Source: Desulfocapsa sulfexigens DSM 10523 (GTDB taxonomy: Bacteria > Desulfobacterota > Desulfobulbia > Desulfobulbales > Desulfocapsaceae). From it: DNA of 32,000 bases. The translations under genes and the position numbers were made by a program. Below are positions 16,690-30,366 of the stretch, piece by piece. The stretch lies in assembly GCF_000341395.1 (NCBI RefSeq), contig NC_020304.1:3900001-3932000 (forward strand), in the 5' to 3' direction. The notes beneath the pieces were generated by a model, which saw nothing but the letters and a program-made list of their open reading frames with translations, searched no databases and was not told the origin of the DNA. Within the stretch, counting starts at the first letter, position 1, and each line of letters begins with the position of its first letter.

Positions 16690-18402
16690 ATGGCAGGAAA
16701 AAACAGAATAACAAAAATTCCAGCTGATACATTGGTAAATAAAAACAGCAACAGATTTTACCTGATGCTGTCGACGCTTGTCATCAACCTGCTGGCTCTG
16801 GCAATGCCTATTATGATGCTGCAGACCTATGACCGTATCCTTCCAAGTCACGGAATAGGTACCCTGGTGTTACTCATCTCAGGAGTTGCCTGTGCGGTAA
16901 CGCTTGAAGTCGGCCTTCGTCTGGCACGATCATATCTCACCGGCTGGTCCGGGGCAGTTTTTGAACATAAAACTGCTTGCGCCGCCATGTCTCACCTGCT
17001 CAATGCCAATGTTCAGGCATTTGAAAAACAGGGTGCAGGAGCGTACATCCAAAAGATGGCGGCAATCACCAGATTGCGAAGTTTCTACTCCGGCCAGGCA
17101 CTGATGACCATGGTGGACCTTCCCTTTGTTATAACTTTTCTTGTCCTGATTGGCTATATCGGAGGAGATCTGGTTTTTGTACCACTCACTCTGTTTATTC
17201 TTTTCTGCATTATATCCTGGATTGTGGGAATACGCCTCAAACAGGAGGTAAAAGAACAGGACTTCAGCGACAAGATCCGCTACAACTTTCTCATAGAGAC
17301 CCTGACCGGTATTCACTCCATAAAGAGTCAGGGGCTTGAAAAATTCTTTTTCCGCCGTAACGATCGTCTTCAAAATCGTATCTCGGCTGCTCACTTTCAA
17401 GTTGCACTTTCCAATAATATCGCCATGAGCTCGGGAATGCTGTTTGGCCAAATCATGACCGTATCGGTTGTATCTTACGGGGCGATCAAGGTTTTGAACG
17501 GTGACATGGGAACCGGTGGTCTTGCCGCCTGTCTCCTGCTGTCTGGAAGAGTCATGCAACCCGTGCAGAGGGCATTGGGGCTATGGACCAGATTTCAAAG
17601 CTTTTTTATCGACAAAAAAGAACTGGAAGATATTTTTGCCCTCCCAGGATCGTCCTACGGTGACACTGAAACAGTGATGCAGCCCACGGGCCTTGTCAGC
17701 TGTAGAAACCTCAGTTTTTCTTACGGAGAAAAAAGCTCTCTTCTCTTCGACGACATCAACCTCTCGCTGCGAACGGGCCAGTCCATATCTCTTATTGGAG
17801 AGCAGGGTTCGGGCAGAACAACATTTATCAACCTTCTCACCGGCTTGTACAAACCGACAGAGGGGCAAATCACCATCGATGGAGCAAATCCATCACAGGT
17901 TTCTCCTGTACAGCTTGCCTCACATATTGGATATCTCCCGGAAAAAGGAGCTATTTTCCACGGAACGATCATGGAGAATCTTACTTTTTTTGGAACAATA
18001 CCTGAAAAGGACGCCCTGAAAGCTGCCGAGCATCTTGAAGTGAGCGAAGCGGTGGCACTTTTACCGAATGGATATAAAACAGTACTCAGCGATTCCGTAA
18101 CCGACCCCATTCCTCCAGGCCTCAAACAACGAATCTCAATAGCACGCGCTCTCGCCACAAGGCCCCGGATTATTCTGTTCAACAACGCCGACAGAAATCT
18201 TGACCGCTCCGGCTACAACCTGGTCTTCAGGATACTCGGGCGCCTCAAAAAAAACACCGTCCTTATCATCATTTCCGATGATCGCAATATCCTTCGACTG
18301 GCAGACAAGGAATACTACATCGTCAACGGAAAACTAGAGGAGAACGCTCCTGTTGACTCCAAACTCTTCTCGGTTCTGCCATTCAGAGAGTTACGGGCAT
18401 GA
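16690..18402 (+). CDS. T1SS-type ABC permease/ATPase (PrtD-like length, no N-terminal peptidase domain) with a degenerate nucleotide-binding domain
   Basis: A six-TM exporter domain is followed by an NBD. Walker A reads GEQGSGRTT (K to R, 17797-17823), the signature reads PPGLKQR (18112-18132), Walker B reads IILFNNAD (D,E to N,N, 18169-18192), and the H-loop region reads IISDD. An AGGAG Shine-Dalgarno sequence lies 4 nt upstream of the ATG. Confidence 0.85.
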   Translation: MAGKNRITKIPADTLVNKNSNRFYLMLSTLVINLLALAMPIMMLQTYDRILPSHGIGTLVLLISGVACAVTLEVGLRLARSYLTGWSGAVFEHKTACAAMSHLLNANVQAFEKQGAGAYIQKMAAITRLRSFYSGQALMTMVDLPFVITFLVLIGYIGGDLVFVPLTLFILFCIISWIVGIRLKQEVKEQDFSDKIRYNFLIETLTGIHSIKSQGLEKFFFRRNDRLQNRISAAHFQVALSNNIAMSSGMLFGQIMTVSVVSYGAIKVLNGDMGTGGLAACLLLSGRVMQPVQRALGLWTRFQSFFIDKKELEDIFALPGSSYGDTETVMQPTGLVSCRNLSFSYGEKSSLLFDDINLSLRTGQSISLIGEQGSGRTTFINLLTGLYKPTEGQITIDGANPSQVSPVQLASHIGYLPEKGAIFHGTIMENLTFFGTIPEKDALKAAEHLEVSEAVALLPNGYKTVLSDSVTDPIPPGLKQRISIARALATRPRIILFNNADRNLDRSGYNLVFRILGRLKKNTVLIIISDDRNILRLADKEYYIVNGKLEENAPVDSKLFSVLPFRELRA

Positions 18403-20582
18403 GTGATGATTTTCTAAAAAAAAGCAGCTTGCTGCAAAGCAGGATCGAACCCTATGGCTGGCTTTCCAAAACCGGCCTGCCTTCGCCCTTCGCCTCATGT
18501 GTGGCACCGCTCCTCACTGCTCTTTCCTGGAACGGAGAAGTGCATCAGATCTGTGAATCCCTGCCCCACTACCCTGACCAGATCGACCGAGTGGATTTCA
18601 TTAACACCATGGCAAATCTGAATTATCAGATTCAACATGCCAGCGTAAAACAATTAACAGGTTTTGATGCACGCCTTGCCCCCTGCCTCGTTGTTGTCAA
18701 TGAGGGGGGAGACCAAGAGATCCCTTATATTGTCTTTAGCGACTCAAAAAGTACTCTCCACGCCTTCGATGGAAAAAGTCAGGAATGTGTTCCCTTTACT
18801 ACAATCACAAAAAGCAGTGGAACAATTTACACTTTTCAGGCCCTCGATGAGAATGGACTGGATAAAAACAAACTGAACCAGCAGGTCCATGAAAAACCGA
18901 GCCGCTGGGCCCGGTTTCTGGGCAGCCGCTTTACTCCTGTCTTCAAGCAGATATTTGTTTCAAGTTTTGTGATCAATCTGCTGGCCCTTGTATCATCACT
19001 TTTTGTCATGGCCGTATATGACAAAGTAATCGGCAACAATTCCCCTGACACCTTGTATTTCTTAGCAATTGGTGCACTTATGGCCATAGGTTTCGAGTCT
19101 TTGCTTCGCTACCTGCGCGCAAGAAGTCTTGCCTTTTTCGGGGTTCGCCTTGACTCCATTATCACCCAATCCATTTTTGAGCGTCTCCTGTATCTTCCAC
19201 CCCGTATCGTGGAAAGTTCATCCATTCCGGCACAGATTGCCCGCCTGAAAGATTTCGACTCCGTCCGTAATTTCTTCTCAGGCCCCGTGGGGACGAATCT
19301 GGTTGAAATTCCCTTTACCCTGATTTTTATTTTCACCATTTATTTTATCGGAGGACCACTGGTACGCATTCCCATTCTTCTGGCGCTTTTTTATTCTTTA
19401 CTCGGGTTCATCATGCTTCCCCGGATTCAGAACTGCACTGAAGAGGGAGCCGTTGCCAGCGTTCAGCGACAGACGCTCATGGTGGAAACCATGCAGAAAT
19501 TCAGACCTATCCGTATCCATGGCGCCATGGATACCTGGTTTGAGCGCTTCAGGAAACTCTCGGGTATCTCAGCATACACCTCCTTTAAAAGCTCCCAGCA
19601 GACAGCATTTGTGGAAGCAATTGCCTACGGACTTTCGGTCGGAGCGGGTGTAGGTACTCTGGTTTACGGTATCTTTCTGGTCTGGGAACAACAAATCACA
19701 ACAGGTGCACTTATTGCCAGTATGATGCTGGTATGGCGAGTTATTTCTCCCCTGCAATCCATCTGCAACTCTCTGGTGCGTATTCGTTATATTTTCCGCA
19801 GCGTGGGTCAGGTGCACAAACTCTTGCGCTCGGCCCCTGAAAACAGTACTACCCTTTCTGATCAACCATTCACTATCACCGGAAATATTTCATTCAGTGG
19901 CGTGGGCCTGCGCTATACTGCAGATCGAGGAGCAGTCTTCAGCGGAATGACGCTCAACATCAAGGCAGGTGAAGTTGTTGCCGTGGCAGGTCCCAGCGGC
20001 TCCGGGAAATCATCTCTGCTGAAAATCATTATAGGCCTCTATCCACCGCAGATGGGTGCAGTACTGATAGATGGGCTTGATATACGACAACGGGACCCCA
20101 TAGCACTGAGGCGAAATATTGCCTATACCCCGCAAACACCGGAGCTTTTTCACGGCTCAATCGAACAAAACCTGCGCATGTGTAAACCCGACGCAACCCC
20201 TGAAGAACTCAACAACTGTTTATACCTTGCAGGGGCACTCGACGATGTCAATCACTTTGAAGAAGGTATCTCGTACTTTATTGGAGACTACAAATCTGAA
20301 CAACTCTCCACCACCCTCACCTATCAGTTAACACTGGCACGCACCTACCTAAGGGATGCATCTATCTTTTTATTTGATGAAATGCCGCCAACACTTCTAG
20401 GAAAAAAAACCGGCATATTTTTCCGTGAATTCTTGCAGAACAACCGGGGCAGCAAAACCATGCTCTATGTAACGGACCACGAAGAAGACATACTCAAGGC
20501 TGACAAATTAATCTATCTGACCGGAACCGGTCAGGTGCTGATCGGAGATCCTGCCGAACTACTGACAGCTCTCAAAAAATAA
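18399..20582 (+). CDS. T1SS-type ABC permease/ATPase with N-terminal C39-like domain; canonical Walker A/B but degenerate signature motif
   Basis: It overlaps the upstream ABC gene by ATGA. The N-terminal ~160 aa resemble a C39 peptidase-like domain (SCVAPLLTALSWNGEVHQICESLPH...). Walker A GPSGSGKSS (19989-20015), Q-loop YTPQTPELF and Walker B IFLFDE (20364-20381) are canonical. The signature position reads LSTTLTYQLTLAR (20304 onward). Confidence 0.85.
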   Translation: MSDDFLKKSSLLQSRIEPYGWLSKTGLPSPFASCVAPLLTALSWNGEVHQICESLPHYPDQIDRVDFINTMANLNYQIQHASVKQLTGFDARLAPCLVVVNEGGDQEIPYIVFSDSKSTLHAFDGKSQECVPFTTITKSSGTIYTFQALDENGLDKNKLNQQVHEKPSRWARFLGSRFTPVFKQIFVSSFVINLLALVSSLFVMAVYDKVIGNNSPDTLYFLAIGALMAIGFESLLRYLRARSLAFFGVRLDSIITQSIFERLLYLPPRIVESSSIPAQIARLKDFDSVRNFFSGPVGTNLVEIPFTLIFIFTIYFIGGPLVRIPILLALFYSLLGFIMLPRIQNCTEEGAVASVQRQTLMVETMQKFRPIRIHGAMDTWFERFRKLSGISAYTSFKSSQQTAFVEAIAYGLSVGAGVGTLVYGIFLVWEQQITTGALIASMMLVWRVISPLQSICNSLVRIRYIFRSVGQVHKLLRSAPENSTTLSDQPFTITGNISFSGVGLRYTADRGAVFSGMTLNIKAGEVVAVAGPSGSGKSSLLKIIIGLYPPQMGAVLIDGLDIRQRDPIALRRNIAYTPQTPELFHGSIEQNLRMCKPDATPEELNNCLYLAGALDDVNHFEEGISYFIGDYKSEQLSTTLTYQLTLARTYLRDASIFLFDEMPPTLLGKKTGIFFREFLQNNRGSKTMLYVTDHEEDILKADKLIYLTGTGQVLIGDPAELLTALKK

Positions 20583-20599: not shown

Positions 20600-21904
20600 A
20601 TGGCAAAAAAAACGAAACATGATAACAACCAGCAGCTTCGGCTTCTCGGGCTCACAGCAGTACTTGAAGAGGCGACCACTCCGTACCTGATCCGCACCTC
20701 AACCCTTATTGTTTCAGTGGCATTTCTTTCCTTTCTGGTCTGGACAGGTTTTGCTAAAATCAAAGAAGTGGCAAGAACCGTAGGAGAGATCGTACCATCC
20801 GGTCACATTCAGGTCATTCAGCACCTTGAGGGAGGGATCGTTGATGAAATTCTTGTGGAGGAGGATGACCTCGTCAATCCCGGCCAGGTTTTGCTGCGAA
20901 TTCGTGGAGAATCCATAAAAGCCGATCGCGCCCGCCTAGTCACCAGAAAGAACCTTCTCGAACAACGTCATGCCCGTCTCACTGCATTTCTAAACGACAA
21001 GACCCCTTCTGATCCTTCTCACTCGGACAATGCTATCCTCTCTGGAATGTTCCTTGCTCAAAACGACGAGATTCAGGTATTAAAAGAACAGATTGTTCAG
21101 AAAAATGAACAAATAAGTCTCCTCAAACGTGAACAGGCAACCATCCTGAAAAATCTTTCAATTGCCAAAGAATCTTTCGAGACTCAAAAAAAACTTTATG
21201 AGGAACGATTAGTTCCCCAAACGAACTACCTCAATGCTCTGCAGGAAATCAATGCCCGAAAAGGACAGCTCGATGCCATGGTTATCCAGATCAGACAGGC
21301 TGAACAGGCAGTTAAAGAGTTTGAGTGGCGCCTCCAGTCACAGGGTTCCAAAAGCAAGGATAATGTTCTGCAACAATTAGCTGTACTTGAGGATGACCTT
21401 GCAGAAAACAAGGATTTAATTGAAAAACTCAATCAGCAAATCAGTCGTCTGGAACTCAAATCTCCTACCTATGGTCTTGTCAAAGGACTCGAGATCCATA
21501 CCATTGGAGGTATTATTCCACCTGGTCAATCCCTGATGGAAATAGTCCCCCTGGGTGAGGAACTGGTTGCAGAAGTCAAGGTGTCACCGAACGATATTGG
21601 CCATATAAAAACGGGTGACCATGTCACGGTAAAGGTGACTACTTTTGATTTTTCCCGCTACGGATCCATAGATGGTACATTAACCGCCCTATCAGCAACA
21701 ACATTCACAAACCCACAGGGAACACCGTATTATAAAGGTATGATAAAACTTAGTAAACACTATGTTGGAAATGACCCAGAGATGAACAAGGTTCTCCCCG
21801 GTATGATAGTCAATGCAGATATTATCACCGGTGAAAAAAGCCTGCTTGCCTACTTATTAAAGCCTATTCACCGCTCGTTGAATTCGGCATTTATCGAACG
21901 CTGA
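20600..21904 (+). CDS. HlyD-family type I secretion periplasmic adaptor (membrane fusion protein)
   Basis: It has one N-terminal TM helix, a lipoyl-like segment (GHIQVIQHLEGGIVDEILVEEDDLV), a long coiled-coil and a C-terminal beta-barrel ending ...GEKSLLAYLLKPI, which is typical of HlyD/PrtE proteins. Confidence 0.88.
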   Translation: MAKKTKHDNNQQLRLLGLTAVLEEATTPYLIRTSTLIVSVAFLSFLVWTGFAKIKEVARTVGEIVPSGHIQVIQHLEGGIVDEILVEEDDLVNPGQVLLRIRGESIKADRARLVTRKNLLEQRHARLTAFLNDKTPSDPSHSDNAILSGMFLAQNDEIQVLKEQIVQKNEQISLLKREQATILKNLSIAKESFETQKKLYEERLVPQTNYLNALQEINARKGQLDAMVIQIRQAEQAVKEFEWRLQSQGSKSKDNVLQQLAVLEDDLAENKDLIEKLNQQISRLELKSPTYGLVKGLEIHTIGGIIPPGQSLMEIVPLGEELVAEVKVSPNDIGHIKTGDHVTVKVTTFDFSRYGSIDGTLTALSATTFTNPQGTPYYKGMIKLSKHYVGNDPEMNKVLPGMIVNADIITGEKSLLAYLLKPIHRSLNSAFIER

Positions 21905-21959: not shown

Positions 21960-22898
21960 ATGACTATCACACAGGATGCTCCTCTTTCAATACTTGCCGT
22001 AGATGACAATCCAACCACACTACGCCTCCTCGAAACCATGCTGAAGCGTAATAAATTCGATGTTCGCACTGCCGTAAATGGAGTCGAAGCCATGGCTGTT
22101 CTCAGCGAGTCTCATGACACCATTGACATTATTCTTCTTGACAGAATGATGCCTGAGATGGACGGAATCGAAGTCTGTAATGCCATGAAGGCGGATGAAA
22201 ATCTACGCCACATCCCCATTATAATGCAAACCGCAGCGGACCGCCCTGAAGAGATCAGTGAAGGAATTGCAGCCGGAGTCTTTTATTATCTCACCAAGCC
22301 ACTGAATGTTGAAATGCTGCTCTCAATTGTTGAGGCTGCAGGAAAGCAGATCCGCCGCCACAGACAGTTGCGCCACGAAATGGAACGACGCAAAATCAGT
22401 TTTGGTCTTGTTCAGATTCTGAAATGTACCTTCAGGACATTGGATGAAGCCGAAGGACTTTCCATATTTTTGGCAAACTATTTTGATGATCCCGACAGGA
22501 CCCTCACCGGTATTTCAGAGCTTCTGGTAAATGCGGTGGAACACGGAAACCTTGGTATCAGCTATGCGGAGAAAAGTGAACTGGTGGCAGAAAAAAAATG
22601 GCAAAACGAGATCAACAACCGCCTCAACGATCCACGCTATGGAGATCGAAGGGTAACTGTGATATTTGAACGTAAGGAAAAAGCCTGCTATATCCAGATT
22701 ACCGACGAAGGGGATGGCTTTGACTGGAAGCAATACATGGAGGTTGATCCCTCACGTGCCATGCACAATCACGGTCGTGGAATTGCCATGGCCAACATGC
22801 TCTGTTTTAACAAACTGGTATACAATGAGAAAGGAAATCAGGTTACCGGAATAATAGAAAGCGATACAAGAGAGGATAAAGACGATTTTTGGGATTGA
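21960..22898 (+). CDS. response-regulator receiver fused to a GHKL ATPase/kinase domain (RsbW/SpoIIAB-like)
   Basis: The REC domain has all key residues (VDDNP, LLDRMMPEMDG, MQTAA, TKP). The C-terminal half has an N-box ELLVNAVEHGN, a G1 box ITDEGDGFD and a G2 box GRGIAMA. Confidence 0.8.
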   Translation: MTITQDAPLSILAVDDNPTTLRLLETMLKRNKFDVRTAVNGVEAMAVLSESHDTIDIILLDRMMPEMDGIEVCNAMKADENLRHIPIIMQTAADRPEEISEGIAAGVFYYLTKPLNVEMLLSIVEAAGKQIRRHRQLRHEMERRKISFGLVQILKCTFRTLDEAEGLSIFLANYFDDPDRTLTGISELLVNAVEHGNLGISYAEKSELVAEKKWQNEINNRLNDPRYGDRRVTVIFERKEKACYIQITDEGDGFDWKQYMEVDPSRAMHNHGRGIAMANMLCFNKLVYNEKGNQVTGIIESDTREDKDDFWD

Positions 22899-23071
22899 GA
22901 TGAAGCCCATTTCACTTTCGTAATCTGGAGTACAGAACCTTCTAGGTATTTGCCTAGGTGTTTTGCCTAGGATACGGCTAATCACCTAAAAATACATGGA
23001 CATTGCATTCATTCCTTTCACAAGAAACAACGGAACGCTTATTGCATCACCCAACCTGTAACCACAACAAC

Positions 23072-23220: not shown

Positions 23221-26200
23221 ATGTCTTCAGAGAACAATCCAGTTAGCTCTTCTTCCAGCCCCATTGGCAATTCAACAGAGAATACTCAACAGGACTGGAT
23301 GGATCTTGACCAGCAGGGAGTAGCAGGAGAAACCCTTAAGGCAAAGAAATGGACGACCCAGCGACGCCTTGTCGACGATGCATCCTATCAAGGCAACATT
23401 CATACAGGAACTGAAGCGACTACTGAGCTGAATAAAAGCGACACTCTCTCCGGGGATGCCCTGAACTATCAGTCAATTGCTAATGAAGGTAAAGAGACAC
23501 AGGACAACAACGGCCCAGAGGAATTTTCAGACGAATCCCAACGGGGCTTATCACCCGACATGGATTCCCTGAACAGAACCGACACACCATCGGCCACATC
23601 TGCAGCATACGAACATACGACTGAAGCTGAAAGTCTTGTTACATCCAGCGGAAGTGACACACTGAAATTTGAAGAACATATTGATGAAGCCAAATCACAT
23701 GGACGCACTGCGACTGAAAACAAATCTACAACACGATTGGCCCAGCCTGCAGCAACAGAAACGCCTCCGGAAGATCTCCCCCTGGAGAATAGCAGTCAGG
23801 AAAGGAACACAGCCACCGTATCGGAGTTACAGCAGAAATCAGAGATTAGTGACGCTGTTGATCCCTCCACACAAACACCCACCACAGCTCCTGGATCTGC
23901 CCCTGAACCTGTACCTGACCATGAAATAATCACAGAAAGTAGTGCATCCGCGCCTATTTTGACCACAGCTGATGCTATCGGTGTCGAAGATACAATGATA
24001 GCAATTGATATTTCAAGTCAGCTTACAGACACCGACGGTTCAGAATCCCTTGCTATCACCATAGGCGGTGTTCCTGAAGGAGCATTCCTTTCAGCCGGTA
24101 CAAGCCTTGGTAATGGAGAATGGCAGCTCACTCCGGATCAGCTCGAAAATCTCAGCCTGACACCACCTGCCAATAGCGACGAAGACTTCAGTCTTACGGT
24201 CACCGCAACCAGCACAGAAAGCCATGGCGGTCAGCAAAACTCCAGATCTGAAATCATCGATTTTTTTATAGAAGCTGTTCCCGACACGCCAGAGCTAACA
24301 ACTGTCGCCGCAACCGGCACAGAAGACACGGCAATTACCCTCGACATCAGCACTGCTCTCACCGAGCTTGATGGTTCAGAAATACTCTCAGCAATCACAC
24401 TATCAGGCCTTCCTGAAGGTTCCATTGTATCCGCCGGAACACAAAACATTGATGGTTCCTGGAGTGTTGCACAAGACGACCTTGAAGGACTACAGCTCAC
24501 TCCACCAAAAGATTATTCCGACAATTTTGAAATCAATTTGTCGGTCACGGCAACCGATTCCAATGGTTCCACTTCAACCAGCACTGCAGTCCTTCCAGTC
24601 ACTATCACAGCAGCGCCCGACGAAGCAGTTATCAGTGGTAGTGGAGCTATACTTGCCGAAGATACCCTTCAAACAGCGTCAGGTCAGTTGACTGTTGTTG
24701 ATCCCGACGCAGATGAGGCCCACTTTACCGCTGAAACGATTGAAGGAACATACGGTTTTCTTGACGTTGCGACAGACGGATCGTGGACATACAATCTCAA
24801 CAACGACGCTGACACAGTGCAGCAGCTCGGTACTGGTGATACTGTTACCGATACCCTCACGGTAACTTCTGCTGATGGCAGTACCCATGATCTGGTCATG
24901 ACCATAACCGGTACAAATGACGCCATTAGCGTAGTGTCAGATAGCAACACAGCACCAAACACTATTATGGAGAATGCCGCAGACGGCACAGAAATCCACC
25001 TCTCTGGACTGGCAACCGATGCAGATGGAGACGCCATACTCTATACACTCGTAGATGATCAAGGAAATGAAATCACCAATGGTCCATTTAGTATTAATAG
25101 AGAAAGTGGCGTTGTTACTCTTCAGGATCGTAGCCTGATAGACTACGAAACTGAAAGCAGTCACACCCTGCATATCCAGGCAAGCAGTGCAGACGGCACC
25201 TCGAGCACCAGTGATTTCCAGGTACAGATTGAAGATGTTGACATTATCAAAACAACCGATCTTGGTGGTGATGTAAATGGCACTGCTGTTACCTTTACAG
25301 TAACAGGAGATCATTACGACCCAAAAAACATTCAAGATGTAGGTGCCGGATCCCCCCACTACCGTATCAGGGTCAACGGCGAACCTCTGGAAATTGACGG
25401 CCAGAACACTTTTTCAGTTGAAGCCAACCGTGGCCATATTGAAGATAACCATGTTGTCCGAGACGGAAATGATGTGGAACTGGTGACTTTCAGGGTACCC
25501 CAAGGAACTGATGTCGATTCTGTTTCAATTGAATTCATTAACGATGCCTATGATACCTCCAGTGACAGGGATGGTGACGGAATCACCACCGAAGATCGAA
25601 ACCTTGTAGTAAAAGAGTTGAATATCGGAGGCACTGTCAACGATGACGGAAGTATTGACGGAGGCACGACCTTGCAGGCTGAGGATATCGAAGTGTCCCA
25701 ATACATTGCCAGTAATGGTGCTGACGTCTCTGGACGCGAAGTTATGCCATGGCAGGGAAGCATGACCTTTTATCCGGATGGTGTGCCACAGGAAGCACCC
25801 ATATTGGTCGATGATAACGCAAATATTTCAGAAGACAGTGCTGTAGTTCTTACAGGCAATATTTTATCCAATGATACCGATGCAAACAACGGGAGCAACT
25901 TCAGTGTGACTGGATTATCTGGAGTCACTGTTCTCCAGGATAATTTCGATGATGGCAATGCTGATGGCTGGGTAGAAATCAGTTCCAATGGCGCTGATAC
26001 TGATAGATGGCAGGTAGTTGACGGGGCTATTGGTGAAAAAAGCAACTCAGCAAAGGGAATCATGGCCCATGACATGGGGGATTCTGCCGACAGCACCAAT
26101 TACGAGGTATCAGTTGATATACATGCCAATGCCGGGGATACGTACAATAACAATGTTGGCCTTACCTTTGGTTATGAAGACAATGCCAATTATTACATGA

Positions 26201-29200
26201 TTAAATGGGATGACTACTCCGACAACTATTCAGAAAGCAGCACCCACAAAGATTTTCAGCTGATCAAAGTTGAGGATGGCCACCAAACAATAATTGACCA
26301 GATAGATCACGCCGAATTACCCAGTGATTTCACATTATCAGTCAATGTATCCAACGATAGCGGCATATCAATATCTGTTGACGGTGAAGAAAAACTCAGA
26401 GCTGCAGATGAACATCCAGCCATCAACACAATTGGCCTCAATACTGGCGATAACGATAGCGGTATCAGTTATGACAATGTATCGGTTATTAATAATGATA
26501 TTCCAATAGAAGATACAACATCTATTGACGGTACCTATGGTACATTAACCCTTAACCAGGATGGCAGTTATTCTTACGAACTCAATGATGCCAATAACGA
26601 TGTACAAATGCTTCATGATGGTGAACAGCTCACAGAGACCTTCGCTGTCAATGTCCTTGAAAACCACTCAGGAGAAGCAGGAACTGAAACACTGAACATT
26701 ACCATTAATGGAAGCAATGACGGCCCCGTTGCAATAAACGACAGTACAGTATCAGAACTCGCAACAGTCTTCCAGGATGATTTTAACGATGGCAATACTG
26801 ATGGCTGGACTGAGATTAGTTACAACGACGCTGATACTGGCAATTGGCAAGCTGTTGATGGTGCTATTGGCGAAAGAAGTAATTCCGCAAGAGGAATCAT
26901 GGCCCATAACATGGGTGATGATGCAGAAAGCACCAATTTTGAAGTTTCGGTGGACGTTCATGCCAACTCTGGACAAACTGGAAATAATAATGTTGGAATT
27001 ACATTTGGATATGAAGACAACAGTAATTACTACATGGTCAAGTGGGATGATTACTCCGAAAACTACTCAGAAAGCAGTACCCATAAAGATTTCCAGTTAA
27101 TCAAAGTTGAAAATGGCCACCAAACAATAATTGATCAAATAGATCAGGCAGATCTGCCCAGTGATTTCAACTTGTCAGTAAATGTGTCCGACGATAATGG
27201 TATAGCTATTATGGTTGATGGTAAAGAAATGCTGACAGCAGTAGATGAACATCCTGCTATTAACACGATCGGCCTTAACACTGACGACAATGACGGCGGC
27301 ATCAGCTACGATAATGTCTCGGTTAAAGTAGCATCCGACCAGACAATTGTGACCGACGAAGATAGTTCCATTGTTGTCACTGCTGACAGTCTCCTTGCCA
27401 ACGATACAGATGTTGAGGGAGACACTCTGTCCATTTCCGCTGTATCCGAAAATGTGCTTGATGTTGATGGCAATATTGTTGGCACCGCCTCCCAGGATGA
27501 CAGTGGCAACATCGTATTCACCCCTGGTGATGCCCTTGATGCTCTTGCGGAAGGTGAGAGTACAAATGTCAACTTCACGTACACGGTCAGTGATGGCCAG
27601 GGTGGAACTGATACAGCCACCGCTACGATCACCGTCACAGGAAAAGATAACGACCTCACCTATGTTTCTGAATCAGCTGGCTATAAAAATGTCGTCGGAA
27701 TGTATGAAACCGACGACCAGGGCAATCCTGTCAGTGGTACCGTGATAATCGACGATCAAAATGGCATGGCAGGTGGCACCCATCTTGCCGATCTGGAACC
27801 TGGCAATTATGAATTTTTCATTATAGCCAACGGTGCAAATGAGGTGGATACTGAGAGCAGTATCAGCTTTGATACCAGCGGAGATAAACCAATACTTTTG
27901 ATTGATGGAGAACCCGCTGCCCACCCCGTCTATTTCACCGAACCAGGTTTTAACCCTGACGGCAAGGATCATTTTCATTTCGAATCAGACGGTGAAGGTG
28001 GCACCTTCATCAAGATAGAAGACTTACCCGACCTTGGGGATGCTGATTTTGAAGATGTGGTGCTTCACACCAACTTCGAGATGGATGACAGAACAGCCAG
28101 TGGCGAGCTTTCTGACGGTGATCAGGCAGCAAACAGTGTGGTGGAAAATACTGCTCCAGAGGCCATCGCTGACATAGCTGACATCAAAGCCTTTGAACTA
28201 CCCGAAGGCGGCAGTATTGTCTCAACGGAAAGCAATACCATCGTGGTCAAAGGTGAAATTGTCACTGAAGGTGACACGGGGTCGAGTGTTGACCAGTGGA
28301 CATTTCACCATGGCGGAGGACCATTGACCATCGATACCCTTTCGGAGAGTGGCACAAACTTCACTGACATTGACGGTGACGGTGCTAAGAACCACATCGA
28401 CACCATGATGCGTCTCTATGACGAGGACGGGAACCAGGTCGCCATGAATGACGACAGCAGCATGCAGACCGGTGACGGTTCAACCAATGATTACTTCTCT
28501 CATATTCAGGACTCCTATATCCAGGTCGATGATCTGCCTCCCGGTAATTACTCTCTTGCCATCGGGTCCTGGGAGCTTACCCAGGATGAAGTAGCAAATG
28601 GCCATAACGACAACTCTGATCAGAATATACGCTATGACCATGCCCAGGATACCGGCCCCTATCAAATAACCCTCACAGGAGACGTATCCTTCTCAGAGGA
28701 AAGTCCTCTTGCCACTGATGAAGACACAGGACTCACCATCAACGCTGACACCCTTCTTGCTAATGATAGCGATGTTGATGGGGACAGCCTCAGTATCGTG
28801 GCAGTGGGTACACCGGTGGATGCAGACGGCAAGGTGGTGGGAACCACCGAACTTGTAACAGAAAACGGCGAACAGCAGATTCGCTTTGTACCGGGTGCTC
28901 AGCTCGATTCCCTTGAAACTGGAGAATCAAGCAGTGTCAGCTTCAGTTACACCATCGATGACGGCCAGGGGGGGACCGATACAGCCACTGCTACGATCAC
29001 CGTTGCAGGAACAGATAACGACCTCACCTATGTTTCTGAATCAGCTGGCTATAAAAATGTCGTCGGAATGTATGAAACCGACGACCAAGGCAATCCTGTC
29101 AGTGGTACCGTGATAATCGACGATCAAAATGGCATGGCAGGTGGCACCCATCTTGCCGATCTGGAACCTGGAAATCATGAGTTTTTCATCATAGCCAACG

Positions 29201-30366
29201 GTGCAAATGAGGTGGATGCTGAAAGCAGCATCAGCTTTGATACCAGCGGAAACAAACCAATACTTTTGATTGATGGAGAACCCGCCACACACCCCGTCTA
29301 TTTTACCGAACCTGGTTTTAACCCCGACGGCAAGGATCATTTTCATTTCGAATCAGATGGTGAAGGTGGTACCTTCATCAAAATAGAAGACTTACCCGAC
29401 CTTGGGGATGCTGATTTTGAAGATGTGGTGCTTCACACCAACTTCGCGATGGATGACAGGACAATAGTAGAAGAATCCATACTTGACGAACAGTTAAATA
29501 ATTCCATAGCAACAGGGATTGCCACAGCCGGATTTGATACTTCCATAACCGATACTGAAGCAAACGGCATCCATAGCGAAGCGATGGAAGATCTCTCTCT
29601 CAATATGCCATTCCTTACTCTGCCAGGTGACGCTGAAGGGAGCGAACAGGCGGCCGAACCCCAGGAAACAGCAATTGTAACGCAGGACACAGTTCTTCAG
29701 GCTGACACCCCTGTTTCAGAATCATTCACGGAAGACAGCCAACAGAGTTTGAATCCACCCACAGATGATGACCTGGCGCTTTCACTCCCCTCCATATCTC
29801 TCAATGATCTCTTTGACGAACCGGCTGACAACAATTACGATCCTGCAGTAACTACTGAAAACGAAACAAGCGCTGTTAGTAATACCGATGAGAATACGAA
29901 TCCTGCAAATGAAGCAGCAACAGACACAACTGATGAGACATCGACTACCGAAGCTGTGGGTCAGGAACCTCAGGAAGAACTTGTAGATGATGCCACTGAT
30001 TTACATAGTATTGCTGGCAGTGAGGTTGAAGAAACTGAATTAAATACCGATAACTTACATATAGATCTTGCGAGTGATACTGAATCCGAGTCGTCAACAA
30101 ATTCAGAGGACGAAAGCAGCAGTCTTGATCGATTTGCAGCAACATCAGCCAATGCATCGGAAGATAACGATAACTCTCCTCTTGACAACTTCTCTGCCTG
30201 CAGTCAGTCCGAAGAAACATCAGAATTCTCATCGGTTGAAGAAATTGACACCATAGACGACAATGCCACAGACCAGGTAGACGATGCCGGGTTAAATGAT
30301 GTTAATGCTATCCAGGAAGACCTTTCCCAAGAAGCGGAACAGGTTGACGCGAATGGTGCATGTTGA
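23221..30366 (+). CDS. 2381-aa mosaic adhesin-like putative T1SS substrate (tandem DTDGSE-type repeats, VCBS, cadherin-like, CBM-like, 2x LamG/lectin-like, 2x cadherin-like+DUF4114, PPC-like; acidic disordered termini)
   Basis: A single uninterrupted ORF preceded by a GGAG Shine-Dalgarno sequence 5 nt upstream. The recognised segments are: VCBS-like (GTYGFLDVATDGSWTYNLNND...TGTNDA at 24640-24925, and GTYGTLTLNQDGSYSYELND at 26488-26745); cadherin-like (24958-25245); FINDAYD...DRNLVVKELNIGG, which resembles a Ca-dependent CBM (25246-25760); DEDxxxxxxADxLLANDTDVxGDxLS plus FTYTVSDGQGGTD, which resemble tandem-95/cadherin-like repeats; GYKNVVGMYE...FIKIEDLPDLGDADFEDVVLH, which resembles DUF4114; and a PPC-like beta-sandwich (28280-28683). 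Confidence 0.9.
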   Translation: MSSENNPVSSSSSPIGNSTENTQQDWMDLDQQGVAGETLKAKKWTTQRRLVDDASYQGNIHTGTEATTELNKSDTLSGDALNYQSIANEGKETQDNNGPEEFSDESQRGLSPDMDSLNRTDTPSATSAAYEHTTEAESLVTSSGSDTLKFEEHIDEAKSHGRTATENKSTTRLAQPAATETPPEDLPLENSSQERNTATVSELQQKSEISDAVDPSTQTPTTAPGSAPEPVPDHEIITESSASAPILTTADAIGVEDTMIAIDISSQLTDTDGSESLAITIGGVPEGAFLSAGTSLGNGEWQLTPDQLENLSLTPPANSDEDFSLTVTATSTESHGGQQNSRSEIIDFFIEAVPDTPELTTVAATGTEDTAITLDISTALTELDGSEILSAITLSGLPEGSIVSAGTQNIDGSWSVAQDDLEGLQLTPPKDYSDNFEINLSVTATDSNGSTSTSTAVLPVTITAAPDEAVISGSGAILAEDTLQTASGQLTVVDPDADEAHFTAETIEGTYGFLDVATDGSWTYNLNNDADTVQQLGTGDTVTDTLTVTSADGSTHDLVMTITGTNDAISVVSDSNTAPNTIMENAADGTEIHLSGLATDADGDAILYTLVDDQGNEITNGPFSINRESGVVTLQDRSLIDYETESSHTLHIQASSADGTSSTSDFQVQIEDVDIIKTTDLGGDVNGTAVTFTVTGDHYDPKNIQDVGAGSPHYRIRVNGEPLEIDGQNTFSVEANRGHIEDNHVVRDGNDVELVTFRVPQGTDVDSVSIEFINDAYDTSSDRDGDGITTEDRNLVVKELNIGGTVNDDGSIDGGTTLQAEDIEVSQYIASNGADVSGREVMPWQGSMTFYPDGVPQEAPILVDDNANISEDSAVVLTGNILSNDTDANNGSNFSVTGLSGVTVLQDNFDDGNADGWVEISSNGADTDRWQVVDGAIGEKSNSAKGIMAHDMGDSADSTNYEVSVDIHANAGDTYNNNVGLTFGYEDNANYYMIKWDDYSDNYSESSTHKDFQLIKVEDGHQTIIDQIDHAELPSDFTLSVNVSNDSGISISVDGEEKLRAADEHPAINTIGLNTGDNDSGISYDNVSVINNDIPIEDTTSIDGTYGTLTLNQDGSYSYELNDANNDVQMLHDGEQLTETFAVNVLENHSGEAGTETLNITINGSNDGPVAINDSTVSELATVFQDDFNDGNTDGWTEISYNDADTGNWQAVDGAIGERSNSARGIMAHNMGDDAESTNFEVSVDVHANSGQTGNNNVGITFGYEDNSNYYMVKWDDYSENYSESSTHKDFQLIKVENGHQTIIDQIDQADLPSDFNLSVNVSDDNGIAIMVDGKEMLTAVDEHPAINTIGLNTDDNDGGISYDNVSVKVASDQTIVTDEDSSIVVTADSLLANDTDVEGDTLSISAVSENVLDVDGNIVGTASQDDSGNIVFTPGDALDALAEGESTNVNFTYTVSDGQGGTDTATATITVTGKDNDLTYVSESAGYKNVVGMYETDDQGNPVSGTVIIDDQNGMAGGTHLADLEPGNYEFFIIANGANEVDTESSISFDTSGDKPILLIDGEPAAHPVYFTEPGFNPDGKDHFHFESDGEGGTFIKIEDLPDLGDADFEDVVLHTNFEMDDRTASGELSDGDQAANSVVENTAPEAIADIADIKAFELPEGGSIVSTESNTIVVKGEIVTEGDTGSSVDQWTFHHGGGPLTIDTLSESGTNFTDIDGDGAKNHIDTMMRLYDEDGNQVAMNDDSSMQTGDGSTNDYFSHIQDSYIQVDDLPPGNYSLAIGSWELTQDEVANGHNDNSDQNIRYDHAQDTGPYQITLTGDVSFSEESPLATDEDTGLTINADTLLANDSDVDGDSLSIVAVGTPVDADGKVVGTTELVTENGEQQIRFVPGAQLDSLETGESSSVSFSYTIDDGQGGTDTATATITVAGTDNDLTYVSESAGYKNVVGMYETDDQGNPVSGTVIIDDQNGMAGGTHLADLEPGNHEFFIIANGANEVDAESSISFDTSGNKPILLIDGEPATHPVYFTEPGFNPDGKDHFHFESDGEGGTFIKIEDLPDLGDADFEDVVLHTNFAMDDRTIVEESILDEQLNNSIATGIATAGFDTSITDTEANGIHSEAMEDLSLNMPFLTLPGDAEGSEQAAEPQETAIVTQDTVLQADTPVSESFTEDSQQSLNPPTDDDLALSLPSISLNDLFDEPADNNYDPAVTTENETSAVSNTDENTNPANEAATDTTDETSTTEAVGQEPQEELVDDATDLHSIAGSEVEETELNTDNLHIDLASDTESESSTNSEDESSSLDRFAATSANASEDNDNSPLDNFSACSQSEETSEFSSVEEIDTIDDNATDQVDDAGLNDVNAIQEDLSQEAEQVDANGAC
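23953..24624 (+). repeat. two tandem 112-aa (336-nt) coding repeats of the DTDGSE/LDGSE type
   Basis: Copy 1 reads P-ILTTADAIGVEDTMIAIDISSQLTDTDGSESLAITIGGVPEGAFLSAGT...LTPPANSDEDFSLTVTATS. Copy 2 reads P-ELTTVAATGTEDTAITLDISTALTELDGSEILSAITLSGLPEGSIVSAGT...LTPPKDYSDNFEINLSVTATD. The offset is exactly 336 nt. Confidence 0.85.
25933..27324 (+). repeat. duplicated ~185-aa LamG/concanavalin-like lectin-fold domain (copies 25933-26487 and 26770-27324, period 837 nt) separated by a VCBS-like unit
   Basis: LQDNFDDGNADGWVEISSNGADTDRWQVVDGAIGEKSNSAKGIMAHDMG...ISYDNVSV aligns with FQDDFNDGNTDGWTEISYNDADTGNWQAVDGAIGERSNSARGIMAHNMG...ISYDNVSV. Protein identity is high by eye, and I estimate roughly 80% at the nucleotide level. 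Confidence 0.85.
27613..28094 (+). repeat. copy 1 of a 482-nt near-identical direct repeat (end of cadherin-like unit plus DUF4114-like domain)
   Basis: It aligns base-for-base with 28981-29462 at an offset of exactly 1368 nt. I counted about 20-25 substitutions and no indels, which is roughly 95% identity. Confidence 0.9.
28981..29462 (+). repeat. copy 2 of the 482-nt near-identical direct repeat
   Basis: See copy 1. The twin antisense shadow ORFs at 27673-27978 and 29041-29346 in the track reflect the same duplication. Confidence 0.9.

Follow-up and report, generated by a model that had tools for sequence, protein, structure and literature searches.

ABC exporters composed of unlike halves that are encoded together include TAP1/TAP2, TM287/288, TmrAB, BmrCD and, as an extreme case, Pdr5. 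In these degenerate-site exporters, one nucleotide-binding domain (NBD) carries an altered Walker B glutamate and H-loop, and the other carries an altered signature. The degenerate site of Pdr5 has a changed Walker A lysine, asparagine in place of the glutamate, tyrosine in place of the histidine and the signature LNVEQ (PMC7756269). Two different ABC proteins are also required by the type I secretion system (T1SS) RtxB/RtxD/RtxE, which handles the very large MARTX substrates of Vibrio, and an RtxB/RtxE heterodimer was proposed by Boardman and Satchell (2004), as cited in PMC3034196 and PMC4316617. At the same time, the ABC proteins of the HlyB/HlyD/TolC and LssB/LapB-type (group 2) T1SS are homodimers bearing a C39-like domain (CLD), and the motifs of HlyB are canonical. 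Finally, tandem T1SS-like ABC genes adjoin a gene for an HlyD-like protein in the NHLP/Nif11 bacteriocin export pair (TIGR03796 and TIGR03797). A pair of overlapping ABC genes from Desulfocapsa sulfexigens, referred to here as ABC1 and ABC2, was compared with all of these systems in the present study.

Organization of the ABC1/ABC2 locus

ABC1 (16690..18402, 570 aa) and ABC2 (18399..20582, 727 aa) lie on the plus strand of the window, i.e., the whole 32,000-nt stretch of DNA that was analyzed, as do all of the features described below. Both are T1SS-type half-transporters with Pfam ABC_membrane and ABC_tran domains: ABC1 comprises a transmembrane domain (TMD) and a degenerate NBD and has no N-terminal accessory domain, while ABC2 comprises a C39-like domain, a TMD and an NBD whose Walker side is catalytically equipped, as judged by alignment to HlyB. 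The two genes share the tetranucleotide ATGA (18399..18402), in which the ABC2 start codon occupies 18399-18401 and the ABC1 stop codon TGA occupies 18400-18402. The first-pass annotation of this DNA, made from the sequence, had placed both reading frames correctly and had regarded the 4-nt overlap as fitting 1:1 production, and this overlap recurs in 67 of 73 related loci (ATGA in 65 of them).

ABC1 is 100% identical to a protein of D. sulfexigens DSM 10523. HlyB is the top PDB match of both proteins (E 7e-62 for ABC1 and 1e-52 for ABC2). The LssB-type model TIGR03375 is the top NCBIfam model of ABC1 (362 bits) and scores 418 bits on ABC2, aligned from residue 31, but both values are well under the cut-off of 693 bits, and neither protein reached the curated cut-off of any NCBIfam T1SS ABC model. 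The HlyD-type adaptor, the C39-like N-terminal domain and the adjacent giant adhesin-like putative cargo likewise resemble the HlyB/LssB/LapB types, but here the CLD is present on ABC2 alone and the putative cargo lacks RTX repeats. The likeness to the NHLP/Nif11 pair goes no further than the gene arrangement: ABC1 scored 209 bits on TIGR03796 (cut-off 853) and 188 bits on TIGR03797 (cut-off 709), ABC2 scored 147 and 167 bits, far under the same cut-offs, and the locus contains neither an active peptidase nor small precursor peptides.

The comparison with RtxB/RtxE that the first-pass annotation had suggested fails at the motif level. RtxB and RtxE of Vibrio vulnificus pC4602-2 (701 and 722 aa), both with N-terminal extensions, carry entirely canonical Walker A, Q-loop, LSGGQ, Walker B, D-loop and H-loop motifs, and ABC1/ABC2 was therefore ruled out as a system of this kind. 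Moreover, the Rtx gene order is B-D-E, with the adaptor gene between the ABC genes, whereas the order here is ABC1-ABC2-adaptor, and the MARTX system lacks the REC-GHKL gene of the present cassette.

Nucleotide-binding motifs of the two halves

The motif register was set by pairwise HMMER alignment to HlyB (7SGR), and the family counts were taken from a MAFFT alignment of 129 sequences, which used the HlyB NBD as its anchor and covered 64 gene pairs; the two alignments were concordant on all ABC1 motif calls. They upheld the first-pass reading that the Walker A, Q-loop, Walker B and H-loop of ABC1 are all degenerate. In the Walker A motif GEQGSGRTT (17797..17823), R376 replaces the lysine, a position occupied by K in 50, R in 9 and L in 3 of the 64 family members; in four loci the P-loop is obliterated, with the ABC1 signature and D-loop intact. 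The Q-loop YLPEKG (17932..17949) has E418 for glutamine, which is missing in most of the family (E in 24, T in 12, S in 11 and others among the 64 pairs). The Walker B and D-loop segment IILFNNADRNLD (18169..18204) contains IILFNN, with N498 and N499 in place of the aspartate and the catalytic glutamate, and the latter position is asparagine in 54 of 64 sequences. In the H-loop region IIISDD (18265..18282), D530 stands for the histidine (D in 49, N in 7 and E in 4 of 64), within a conserved S-D-D-x-N motif in which the aspartate after the histidine position is found in 64/64 and the asparagine two residues on in 63/64.

The D-loop of ABC1 is retained (RNLD, Asp505), its A, D, L and D positions being conserved in 64, 64, 63 and 64 of 64 members, respectively. 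The ABC1 signature IPPGLKQR (18109..18132) is a clade-specific variant of LSGGQRQR. It had been called only partly degenerate; degenerate it is, but the qualifier proved too mild, since IPPGL shares just one of five residues with LSGGQ, the second glycine. Far as it is from LSGGQ, this signature is almost invariant within the clade (P in 63, G in 64, Q in 64 and R in 63 of 64; mean column entropy 0.51 bits).

ABC2 was confirmed to have canonical Walker A, Q-loop glutamine and Walker B residues by alignment to HlyB: GPSGSGKSS (19989..20015; K537, Lys in 64/64), YTPQTPELF (20124..20150; Q579, Gln in 54/64) and IFLFDE (D660 and E661; Asp in 64/64, Glu in 63/64), the last of these lying in the segment 20364..20405, which continues into a lost D-loop (MPPTLL). 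The loss of its signature also held: the sequence is LSTTL (20304..20318), and this region varies in the family (mean entropy 2.02 bits). The D-loop SALD has become PTLL, with the D-loop aspartate changed to N, S or G across the family. This loss in ABC2, against the RNLD kept in ABC1, is a point missing from the first-pass annotation.

No canonical K, D-E or LSGGQ was found close to the degenerate motifs, which would have pointed to misplaced motif calls, and only the ABC2 H-loop had been mis-registered. The reported TDH belongs to the region MLYVTDHEED (20460..20489), where T-D-H aligns with A-H-R of HlyB, so that D693 occupies the position of HlyB His662 and H694, one residue past it, occupies a position that is arginine in HlyB and in 62 of 64 family members. 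The residue at the histidine position depends on the clade (D/E, Q, Y or H); some clades keep the histidine, and most of its replacements are polar (D, E, Q, Y, N). Note that Zaitseva et al. (2005), as cited in PMC7756269, described the H-loop histidine of HlyB as the linchpin of hydrolysis, and that transport by MRP1 is kept after the histidine of NBS2 is changed to glutamine or asparagine (PMC7756269).

Neighboring genes and putative cargo

Immediately downstream lies the gene for an HlyD-family type I secretion membrane-fusion protein (MFP; 20600..21904), which exceeds the TIGR01843 cut-off (338.5 against 208.65 bits). The next gene, RRK (21960..22898), encodes a receiver (REC) domain with the phospho-acceptor D61 and a GHKL HATPase_c_2 domain (Pfam); a full-length PDB homologue is 9QIH, "SenB". 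As the fourth member of the cassette, RRK is co-conserved, being present in 59 of the 61 loci that have room for it. The REC aspartate is kept in 50 of 51 sequences, and conservation extends to the N-box, G1 and G2 motifs of the GHKL domain; any role of this protein is tentative. A terminator-like hairpin (22941..22958) likely marks the end of an ABC1-ABC2-MFP-RRK operon, a weak call since it comes from a consensus scan alone.

Beyond the hairpin, the gene at 23221..30366 encodes an adhesin-like protein of 2381 aa with VCBS, cadherin and DUF4114 domains, whose C-terminal region is acidic (25% D+E in the last 400 aa), and homologous giant proteins are encoded in the matching position in the Desulfobulbales loci. 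It contains no RTX GGxGxD repeats and no recognizable T1SS C-terminal domain, so its assignment as the likely cargo of the ABC1/ABC2 exporter is made by adjacency. A TolC-like gene is absent from the window.

Discussion

With a probability of about 0.75, ABC1 and ABC2 combine as unlike halves into a heterodimeric T1SS ABC exporter of the inner membrane that has a single catalytic site. Translational coupling at the ATGA overlap would supply the two proteins in a fixed ratio, and their NBDs would dimerize head-to-tail to give two unlike ATP sites. Site A, formed by the Walker A/B motifs, Q-loop and H-loop of ABC1 with the signature and D-loop of ABC2, would be unable to hydrolyze ATP, and in D. 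sulfexigens even ATP binding may be weak there (K376R). Site B, in which the ABC1 signature IPPGLKQR and D-loop would face the Walker A/B motifs and Q-loop of ABC2, would power the transport cycle, albeit as a non-canonical site with a clade-specific LPxG..Q-type signature and the polar D693 at the H-loop histidine position. Its partners in secretion would be the HlyD-type adaptor from the neighboring gene and an unlinked TolC-like channel.

Across the 64 gene pairs, this asymmetric reading is strongly supported at the level of sequence conservation: the parts of site B are nearly invariant, with the exception of the ABC2 H-loop residue, whereas those of site A are lost or variable. From this pattern we infer physical heterodimerization, its obligate nature and hydrolysis at one site. 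The heterodimer proposed in the first-pass annotation is thus favored by complementary conservation, synteny, gene fusions and selection, but its presumed catalytic site is itself non-canonical. As in Pdr5, every motif of the degenerate site has changed; unlike in the degenerate-site exporters, the "consensus" site is altered as well (IPPGLKQR, and often D/E/Q/Y for histidine), some ABC1 relatives lack any P-loop in the degenerate site, and the pair is a T1SS component with an HlyD-type adaptor and a CLD on one half.

The loss from site B of the signature serine and first glycine and, at this locus, of the H-loop histidine (a loss shared by most clades) means that this site could be slow or inactive. 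An ABC1/ABC2 heterodimer without useful hydrolysis, operating as an ATP-binding switch, with very slow turnover or on another input such as control or energy from the REC-GHKL protein, would agree with these losses, with the co-conservation of this GHKL ATP-binding protein and with one relative, L087, in which both halves are degenerate. It nevertheless appears unlikely, as the near-invariance of the ABC2 lysine, aspartate and glutamate is hard to explain without catalysis and some clades retain the H-loop histidine; moreover, LPxG..Q signatures stand beside K, Q, DE and H residues that are all canonical in fused and sister relatives, and such a signature is therefore compatible with an active site. 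It is quite improbable that separate homodimers co-assemble in a larger T1SS complex, with working ABC2 dimers and structural or regulatory ABC1 dimers. The HlyB/HlyD structures 7SGR and 8DCK, which hold several ABC dimers per assembly (a trimer of ABC dimers), are among the PDB matches, and the two proteins are only 24% identical and thus old paralogues whose roles could have diverged. However, an ABC2 pair would join invariant catalytic residues to an unconserved signature and a lost D-loop, and an ABC1 pair would join an invariant signature and D-loop to a dead Walker side, or to an obliterated one in four loci; the near-universal overlap fits 1:1 production, and fusion proteins of the ABC1-CLD-ABC2 type (1284-1393 aa), found in Azospirillum, Magnetococcales and other lineages, hold one half of each kind per chain, the N-half being closest to ABC1 and the CLD and C-half closest to ABC2. 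The loss of every catalytic residue from ABC1 might suggest a decaying, dispensable duplicate beside an ABC2 homodimer, but this notion is effectively refuted by the conservation data. The mean pairwise identity of ABC1 is no lower than that of ABC2 (NBD, 0.484 against 0.476; TMD, 0.506 against 0.481), which argues against decay; its variant motifs PPGLKQR, NAD.xLD and SDDxN are nearly invariant, relatives covering 157 species-level genomes have the gene present and intact, and ABC2 was never met without ABC1 in the loci examined.

The N-terminal domain (18471..18923), which is confined to ABC2 as first annotated, has an AF2 model with a pLDDT of 87.3, and its best Foldseek matches are 3B79, 3K8U, PCAT1 and 3ZUA (probability 1.0, TM 0.55-0.66 by target length). 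Whether it is an active peptidase or an inactive CLD had been left open. The matches to the ComA and PCAT1 peptidase domains and the position of Cys34 (in SCVAPLL) in the first helix turn, where papain-like nucleophiles lie, would suit a C39 peptidase cutting a double-glycine leader from its cargo, as in a bacteriocin or PCAT-type exporter. However, this cysteine, although present as annotated, lies in an unconserved column (C, A, T, S or L), the catalytic-histidine column contains Cys, Gly, Thr, Ala or Ser and no histidine among the aligned members, and the domain has neither a Pfam C39 match nor a PDB sequence match; the neighbor is the giant adhesin rather than a small leader-peptide gene, and proteolytic activity is very doubtful. 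Since the catalytic histidine is missing from a C39-like fold, sequence and model together predict an inactive CLD, and, by analogy with the CLD of HlyB, this single domain would probably dock unfolded substrate.

Loci of this kind occur in Desulfobulbales, Rickettsiales, Micavibrio, Bdellovibrionota and Gammaproteobacteria, with ABC1 preceding ABC2 in 66/66 of them and the MFP gene following ABC2 in all 62 with room for it. On sequence grounds, the degenerate ABC1 NBD is under purifying selection, and the relative with two degenerate halves may indicate that further drift of the design is possible or that ATP is not hydrolyzed at all in certain members. The two-half design, previously undescribed, recurs in about 150 bacterial species.

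Family assignment and ATP-site motifs of ABC1 and ABC2

ABC1 (16690-18402, + strand, 570 aa) and ABC2 (18399-20582, + strand, 727 aa) are half-transporters, each with an ABC exporter transmembrane domain (TMD) followed by a nucleotide-binding domain (NBD) (Pfam ABC_membrane and ABC_tran), and both can be aligned with HlyB over the full length. The top NCBIfam model for both proteins was TIGR03375 (LssB-type ABC protein of type I secretion systems, T1SS), with 361.9 bits for ABC1 and 418.0 bits for ABC2 against a curated cut-off of 693.1 bits. Since both also fell below the curated cut-offs of the TIGR03375, TIGR01846 (HlyB) and TIGR01842 (PrtD) models, they are claimed by no curated family, and the ABC1/ABC2 family carries generic annotations only at present.

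The motif register was set by HMMER alignment to HlyB (PDB 7SGR and 8DCK), and a direct BLAST alignment of ABC1 with ABC2 (24% identity) gave the identical register. On this basis, the degeneration of ABC1 described in the first-pass annotation is real: its Walker A reads GEQGSGRTT (HlyB GRSGSGKST), with R376 in place of Lys, the Q-loop Gln is replaced by E418, Walker B is FNN (HlyB FDE; N498/N499), and the H-loop is SDD (HlyB AHR), with D530 at the His position. The canonical Walker A, Q-loop and Walker B ascribed to ABC2 were upheld as well (GPSGSGKSS with K537, Q579, and FDE with D660/E661), as was the loss of its signature (LSTTL for the LSGGQ of HlyB). The SALD D-loop of HlyB corresponds to RNLD in ABC1, where the Asp is kept, and to PTLL in ABC2, where it is lost. 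At the same time, two of the earlier readings had to be corrected. The ABC1 signature, considered only partly degenerate, is indeed degenerate, but IPPGL differs from LSGGQ at four of the five positions. The TDH of ABC2 had been taken for its H-loop in a shifted register; A-H-R of HlyB aligns with T-D-H, so that D693 stands at the His position and H694 at the column where HlyB and 62/64 family members have Arg, and ABC2 is therefore less canonical than previously thought.

In the composite site that would be formed by the ABC1 Walker A/B motifs and Q-/H-loops with the ABC2 signature and D-loop (site A), the NN and SDD of ABC1 together with the LSTTL of ABC2 leave the Walker B Glu, H-loop and signature non-canonical. 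The opposite site (site B, with the Walker A/B motifs and Q-loop of ABC2 and the signature and D-loop of ABC1) is not fully canonical either, carrying IPPGL for LSGGQ and D693 for the H-loop His.

Organization and spread of the gene cassette

Five co-directional genes are present in the window: ABC1, ABC2, a gene for a HlyD-family adaptor (20600-21904, + strand; TIGR01843, 338.5 bits against a cut-off of 208.65), a gene, RRK, for a response regulator fused to a GHKL HATPase_c_2 domain (21960-22898, + strand) and a gene for an adhesin-like protein of 2381 aa with VCBS, cadherin and DUF4114 domains (23221-30366, + strand). The start of ABC2 overlaps the stop of ABC1 in the sequence ATGA; this 4-nt overlap, already recognized at first reading, recurs in 67/73 loci, as ATGA in 65. 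A terminator-like hairpin, predicted by consensus scan only, lies at 22941-22958, 43 nt past the RRK stop, and a further ~260 nt separate it from the adhesin gene; hairpin and gap together suggest that ABC1, ABC2, the adaptor gene and RRK form one transcription unit and the adhesin gene another. The genes 5' of the cassette are of the housekeeping kind (lpxA/D/I-type, GlmS-like, HflX-like, aminotransferase, sigma-54-type regulator and FMN reductase genes), the sigma-54-type response regulator gene (14445-15797) being on the opposite strand. No TolC-like gene was found in the 32-kb window; OEP genes adjoin one fused relative (locus L085).

Approximately 330 relatives were found for each of the two ABC proteins, of which 120 each were inspected. 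When each GTDB species was represented by a single genome, they were present in 157 species, and 80 loci drawn from this set were inspected; they belong to Desulfobulbales, Rickettsiales (including Candidatus Megaera), Micavibrio, Bdellovibrionota, Gammaproteobacteria (including Candidatus Endobugula) and other Alphaproteobacteria. Wherever the contig left room, the gene order was nearly invariant: ABC1 was followed by ABC2 in 66/66 loci, ABC2 by the adaptor gene in 62/62 and the adaptor gene by RRK in 59/61.

Complementary conservation of the two NBDs

The NBDs of an ABC dimer are arranged head-to-tail, each ATP site combining the Walker A/B motifs and Q-/H-loops of one NBD with the signature of its partner, and the D-loops lie at the centre of the dimer interface (PMC7756269). 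The argument from complementary conservation rests on this established arrangement and was applied to 64 ABC1/ABC2 NBD pairs aligned to the HlyB NBD.

In site B, ABC2 retains the Walker A Lys in 64/64 pairs, the Q-loop Gln in 54/64 and the Walker B Asp and Glu in 64/64 and 63/64, respectively; ABC1 contributes the signature xPPGLKQR (P in 63, G in 64, Q in 64 and R in 63 of 64; mean column entropy 0.51 bits) and a D-loop of the form A-D-x-x-L-D (64, 64, 63 and 64 of 64 at the four fixed positions). The exception is the residue at the H-loop His position of ABC2, which differs by clade. In site A, the Walker A Lys of ABC1 is present in 50/64 pairs (R in nine, L in three), the Q-loop Gln is lost from most of the family, Asn replaces the catalytic Glu in 54/64 and Asp the H-loop His in 49/64; the ABC2 signature reaches an entropy of 2.02 bits, and its D-loop Asp has given way to N, S or G. 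The P-loop of ABC1 is gone altogether in four Micavibrio-type loci (e.g., AAMPAALTA), although these preserve the signature and D-loop of ABC1. The A-loop Tyr is found in 51/51 ABC2 and 39/51 ABC1 proteins.

As judged from these alignments, the complementary pattern is what would be predicted for a heterodimer with one working site; for two homodimers, the opposite would be expected. The loss of so many ATP-site residues might also be expected of a decaying paralogue, and ABC1 was considered as such; the mean pairwise identity is the same for its NBD (0.484) as for the NBD of ABC2 (0.476), and this explanation was rejected.

A separate observation is the basic residue (R in 47, K in 12 of 64) at the D-loop Ser position of ABC1, where SALD becomes [RK]xLD (18187-18204, residues 500-505). 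It would face the ATP site of ABC2 in the heterodimer, and a role in trans for this residue is pure speculation.

Natural fusions and the non-canonical features of site B

A tblastn search of plasmids revealed a 1363-aa fusion protein on pAB510c of Azospirillum sp. B510 with the order TMD-NBD-CLD-TMD-NBD (CLD, C39-like domain), whose gene adjoins those for a HlyD adaptor and a giant Ig-like protein, and a protein search extended such fusions (1284-1393 aa) throughout Azospirillum, to one Magnetococcales bacterium and to several metagenomic lineages. In every case inspected, the N-terminal half was nearest to ABC1 (31-38% identity), and the CLD with the C-terminal half was nearest to ABC2 (31-36%), cross-matches reaching only 22-27%. 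By their sequence relationships, these fusions are independent evidence that ABC1-type and ABC2-type halves would work as a unit. The related protein P0238 (1035 aa), a further candidate fusion, was rejected, since it proved to be ABC2-like and to carry a long Pro-rich extension at its N-terminus.

The fused relatives and the split sister locus L084 have mostly canonical Lys, Gln, Asp-Glu and His residues in both halves, together with signatures of the form LPxG[VI][RK]Q. Since these signatures stand beside otherwise normal ATP sites, IPPGLKQR is to be seen as a clade-wide variant signature, which, according to the alignments, is retained in ABC1 and lost in ABC2.

The H-loop His position of ABC2 is occupied by D or E in Desulfobulbales, by Q in Rickettsiales, by Y in Micavibrio-type loci, where Lys in some cases replaces the Q-loop Gln as well, and by H in Gammaproteobacteria and several other groups. 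Most of the residues that replace the His can form hydrogen bonds, and transport by MRP1 was kept when the His of NBS2 was changed to Gln or Asn (PMC7756269). That the Asp found here would serve in place of the H-loop His is the weakest step of the proposed mechanism. Additionally, both halves are degenerate at one metagenomic locus, L087 (5274-9223), where the ABC2-like half has K→R in Walker A, Q→H in the Q-loop, E→Q in Walker B and H→Q in the H-loop, and RRK is not recognizable up to the contig end; this locus may represent a copy in decay or a variant that does not hydrolyse ATP.

N-terminal domain of ABC2

The N-terminal domain of ABC2 has no Pfam C39 (PF03412) match, and its family profile retrieved nothing from the PDB sequences, even at E ≤ 10; its fold was therefore obtained by AF2 modelling and Foldseek. 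The AF2 model, built from 29 sequences with a pLDDT of 87.3, matched the Vibrio C39-like structure 3B79, the ComA peptidase 3K8U, PCAT1 and the HlyB CLD 3ZUA most closely (probability 1.0, TM 0.55-0.66 by target length), in agreement with the C39-like domain that had been proposed for ABC2 only. Cys34 of the model falls within the first turn of a helix (residues 30-41), where the nucleophile is usually located; across the family, this column holds C, A, T, S or L, and the strand position of the C39 His (residue 96, motif LPC[LF]) is never His in the 19 + 29 aligned sequences. The choice between an active peptidase and an inactive CLD, left open earlier, is thus decided by the variable Cys column and the absence of His at the catalytic column in favour of a C39-like domain predicted to be inactive, which is present on one half of the transporter only.

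Candidate substrates

A giant adhesin-like gene lies 3' of RRK in the Desulfobulbales loci, and large proteins are encoded next to the cassette in related loci also. The adhesin-like protein in the window is, by adjacency, the candidate cargo. It has neither RTX repeats nor a recognized T1SS C-terminal domain, and its C-terminal 400 residues contain 25% Asp+Glu; the Desulfobulbales adhesin homologues have a common acidic C-terminus with a V[DE]DAGL-like element. Two pairs of long, near-identical internal duplications were noticed by eye in the 2381-aa protein (residues ~925-1330 and ~1470-2160), the first block beginning FDDGNADGWVEIS.../FNDGNTDGWTEIS... and the second DNDLTYVSESAGYKNVVGMYETDDQGNPVSG..., twice and almost verbatim. 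LapG-type retention was considered and rejected, there being no AAG within residues 1-250 of the adhesin and no LapD/LapG gene in the window.

A 640-1100-aa protein with no Pfam domains is encoded by the gene ending just 5' of ABC1 in Micavibrio-type, other alphaproteobacterial and Bdellovibrionota loci ( L046, L053, L056, L058, L061, L063, L064, L066, L068, L070-L075, L077, L078 and L081). These proteins have the common C-terminus ...LPDPxGxVxEGLGxL...GGLFG-COOH, 19 of them ending in GLFG, and this shared GGLFG terminus may be a family-specific secretion signal. The corresponding upstream protein of Rickettsiaceae carries RTX repeats and DUF4114 (locus L031, 6062-9832), the latter domain being common to this protein and the adhesin-like protein of the window.

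RRK and possible regulation

RRK is a co-conserved cassette gene for a predicted response-regulator/GHKL protein. Its phospho-acceptor Asp (D61) is kept in 50/51 sequences, and the GHKL domain shows conserved N-box, G1 and G2 motifs. Among solved structures, only PDB 9QIH, "SenB," is a full-length relative of RRK, and the literature searched yielded no paper on it. At many loci, RRK is followed by a gene for a hybrid histidine kinase or an Hpt protein. The hybrid kinases, found in many non-Desulfobulbales loci, are of the HisKA-HATPase_c-REC type, some with Hpt, and have CHASE/MASE1, PAS or DAHL sensor domains (e.g., L030, 16176-19331; L026, 7327-10668; L048, 16158-18710), and a stand-alone Hpt protein takes the place of the kinase in L088 (11485-11835). 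The window has no hybrid kinase or Hpt gene 3' of RRK.

The presence of RRK was compared with the state of the ATP sites in the small sample of L084, L085, L086, L088 and L001 against L002-L081. Of these, the split locus L084 and the fused loci L085 and L086 lack RRK, and K, Q, DE and H are canonical in both of their halves; Azospirillum, also without RRK, is only partly degenerate, and L088, which has RRK, has a degenerate ABC1. So, site-A degeneration appears to accompany the REC-GHKL gene (59/61 degenerate-clade loci plus L088), an association that is suggestive, correlative and drawn from a small sample. A functional tie between the two is conceivable, although we consider it rather improbable: the dead NBD of ABC1, which has invariant motifs of its own (NAD[RK]xLD, SDDxN), would serve as a platform through which a two-component phosphorelay, often with a neighbouring hybrid histidine kinase or Hpt protein, gates secretion via site B. 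The site gated in this way would operate with a signature of the LPxG..Q type and lack the H-loop His; the basic D-loop residue of ABC1 may act on it in trans.

Comparison with known systems

In the usual description of type I secretion, the driving force comes from a symmetric ABC homodimer, and RtxB/RtxE is the one well-known T1SS with two ABC proteins. The latter had been put forward as a comparison for ABC1/ABC2. RtxB and RtxE of V. vulnificus pC4602-2 (NC_009703) are both canonical at six motifs (GxSGSGKST, LQE, LSGGQ, LDE, SALD and AHR), unlike the pair in the window, and the Vibrio order is rtxB-rtxD-rtxE, with the ABC genes flanking the adaptor gene and divergent from rtxC and rtxA, in contrast to the order ABC1-ABC2-adaptor-RRK-adhesin. 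With canonical motifs in both proteins and an adaptor gene flanked by their genes, the MARTX pair is thus a symmetric-looking two-ABC T1SS of a different design, and an RtxB/RtxE-type system was rejected on motif pattern and gene order alike. An NHLP bacteriocin export pair (TIGR03796/TIGR03797, cut-offs 853.3 and 709.4 bits) would also bring two ABC proteins together; ABC1 scored 208.6 and 188.0 bits and ABC2 147.1 and 166.9 bits with these models, far below the cut-offs. An active C39 peptidase exporter of the PCAT/AMS, ComA or CvaB kind was rejected as well, the fold of the ABC2 N-terminal domain being of the C39 type, with a variable Cys column, no His at the catalytic column and no PF03412 match.

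The comparative evidence (complementary conservation, synteny and fusions) supports the asymmetric ABC1/ABC2 heterodimer, originally proposed from the sequence of the window, as the main interpretation. We infer the physical heterodimer and one-site hydrolysis, as well as every other function given here for ABC1 and ABC2, from such comparisons. The closest likeness is to exporters of the TAP1/2, TM287/288 and TmrAB type, which likewise consist of two different co-encoded and co-inherited half-transporters with one degenerate composite site; their consensus site, however, is fully canonical, and site B of ABC1/ABC2 is not. The system would therewith be a variant of both the asymmetric ABC heterodimers and the two-ABC T1SS. 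No such T1SS heterodimer with a degenerate site was described in the literature searched, an absence that is no proof of novelty.

If this interpretation is correct, the family represents a natural T1SS with a single usable ATP site, which works without a canonical LSGGQ and often without an H-loop histidine, and with only one substrate-docking CLD per transporter. It would make it possible to test how many ATP sites and CLDs a T1SS needs for threading a giant protein, whether the "linchpin" histidine is dispensable, and why degenerate sites evolve repeatedly, in a family that is widespread, with relatives in 157 representative genomes, among them those of endosymbionts of the Rickettsiales and of the predators Micavibrio and Bdellovibrionota.
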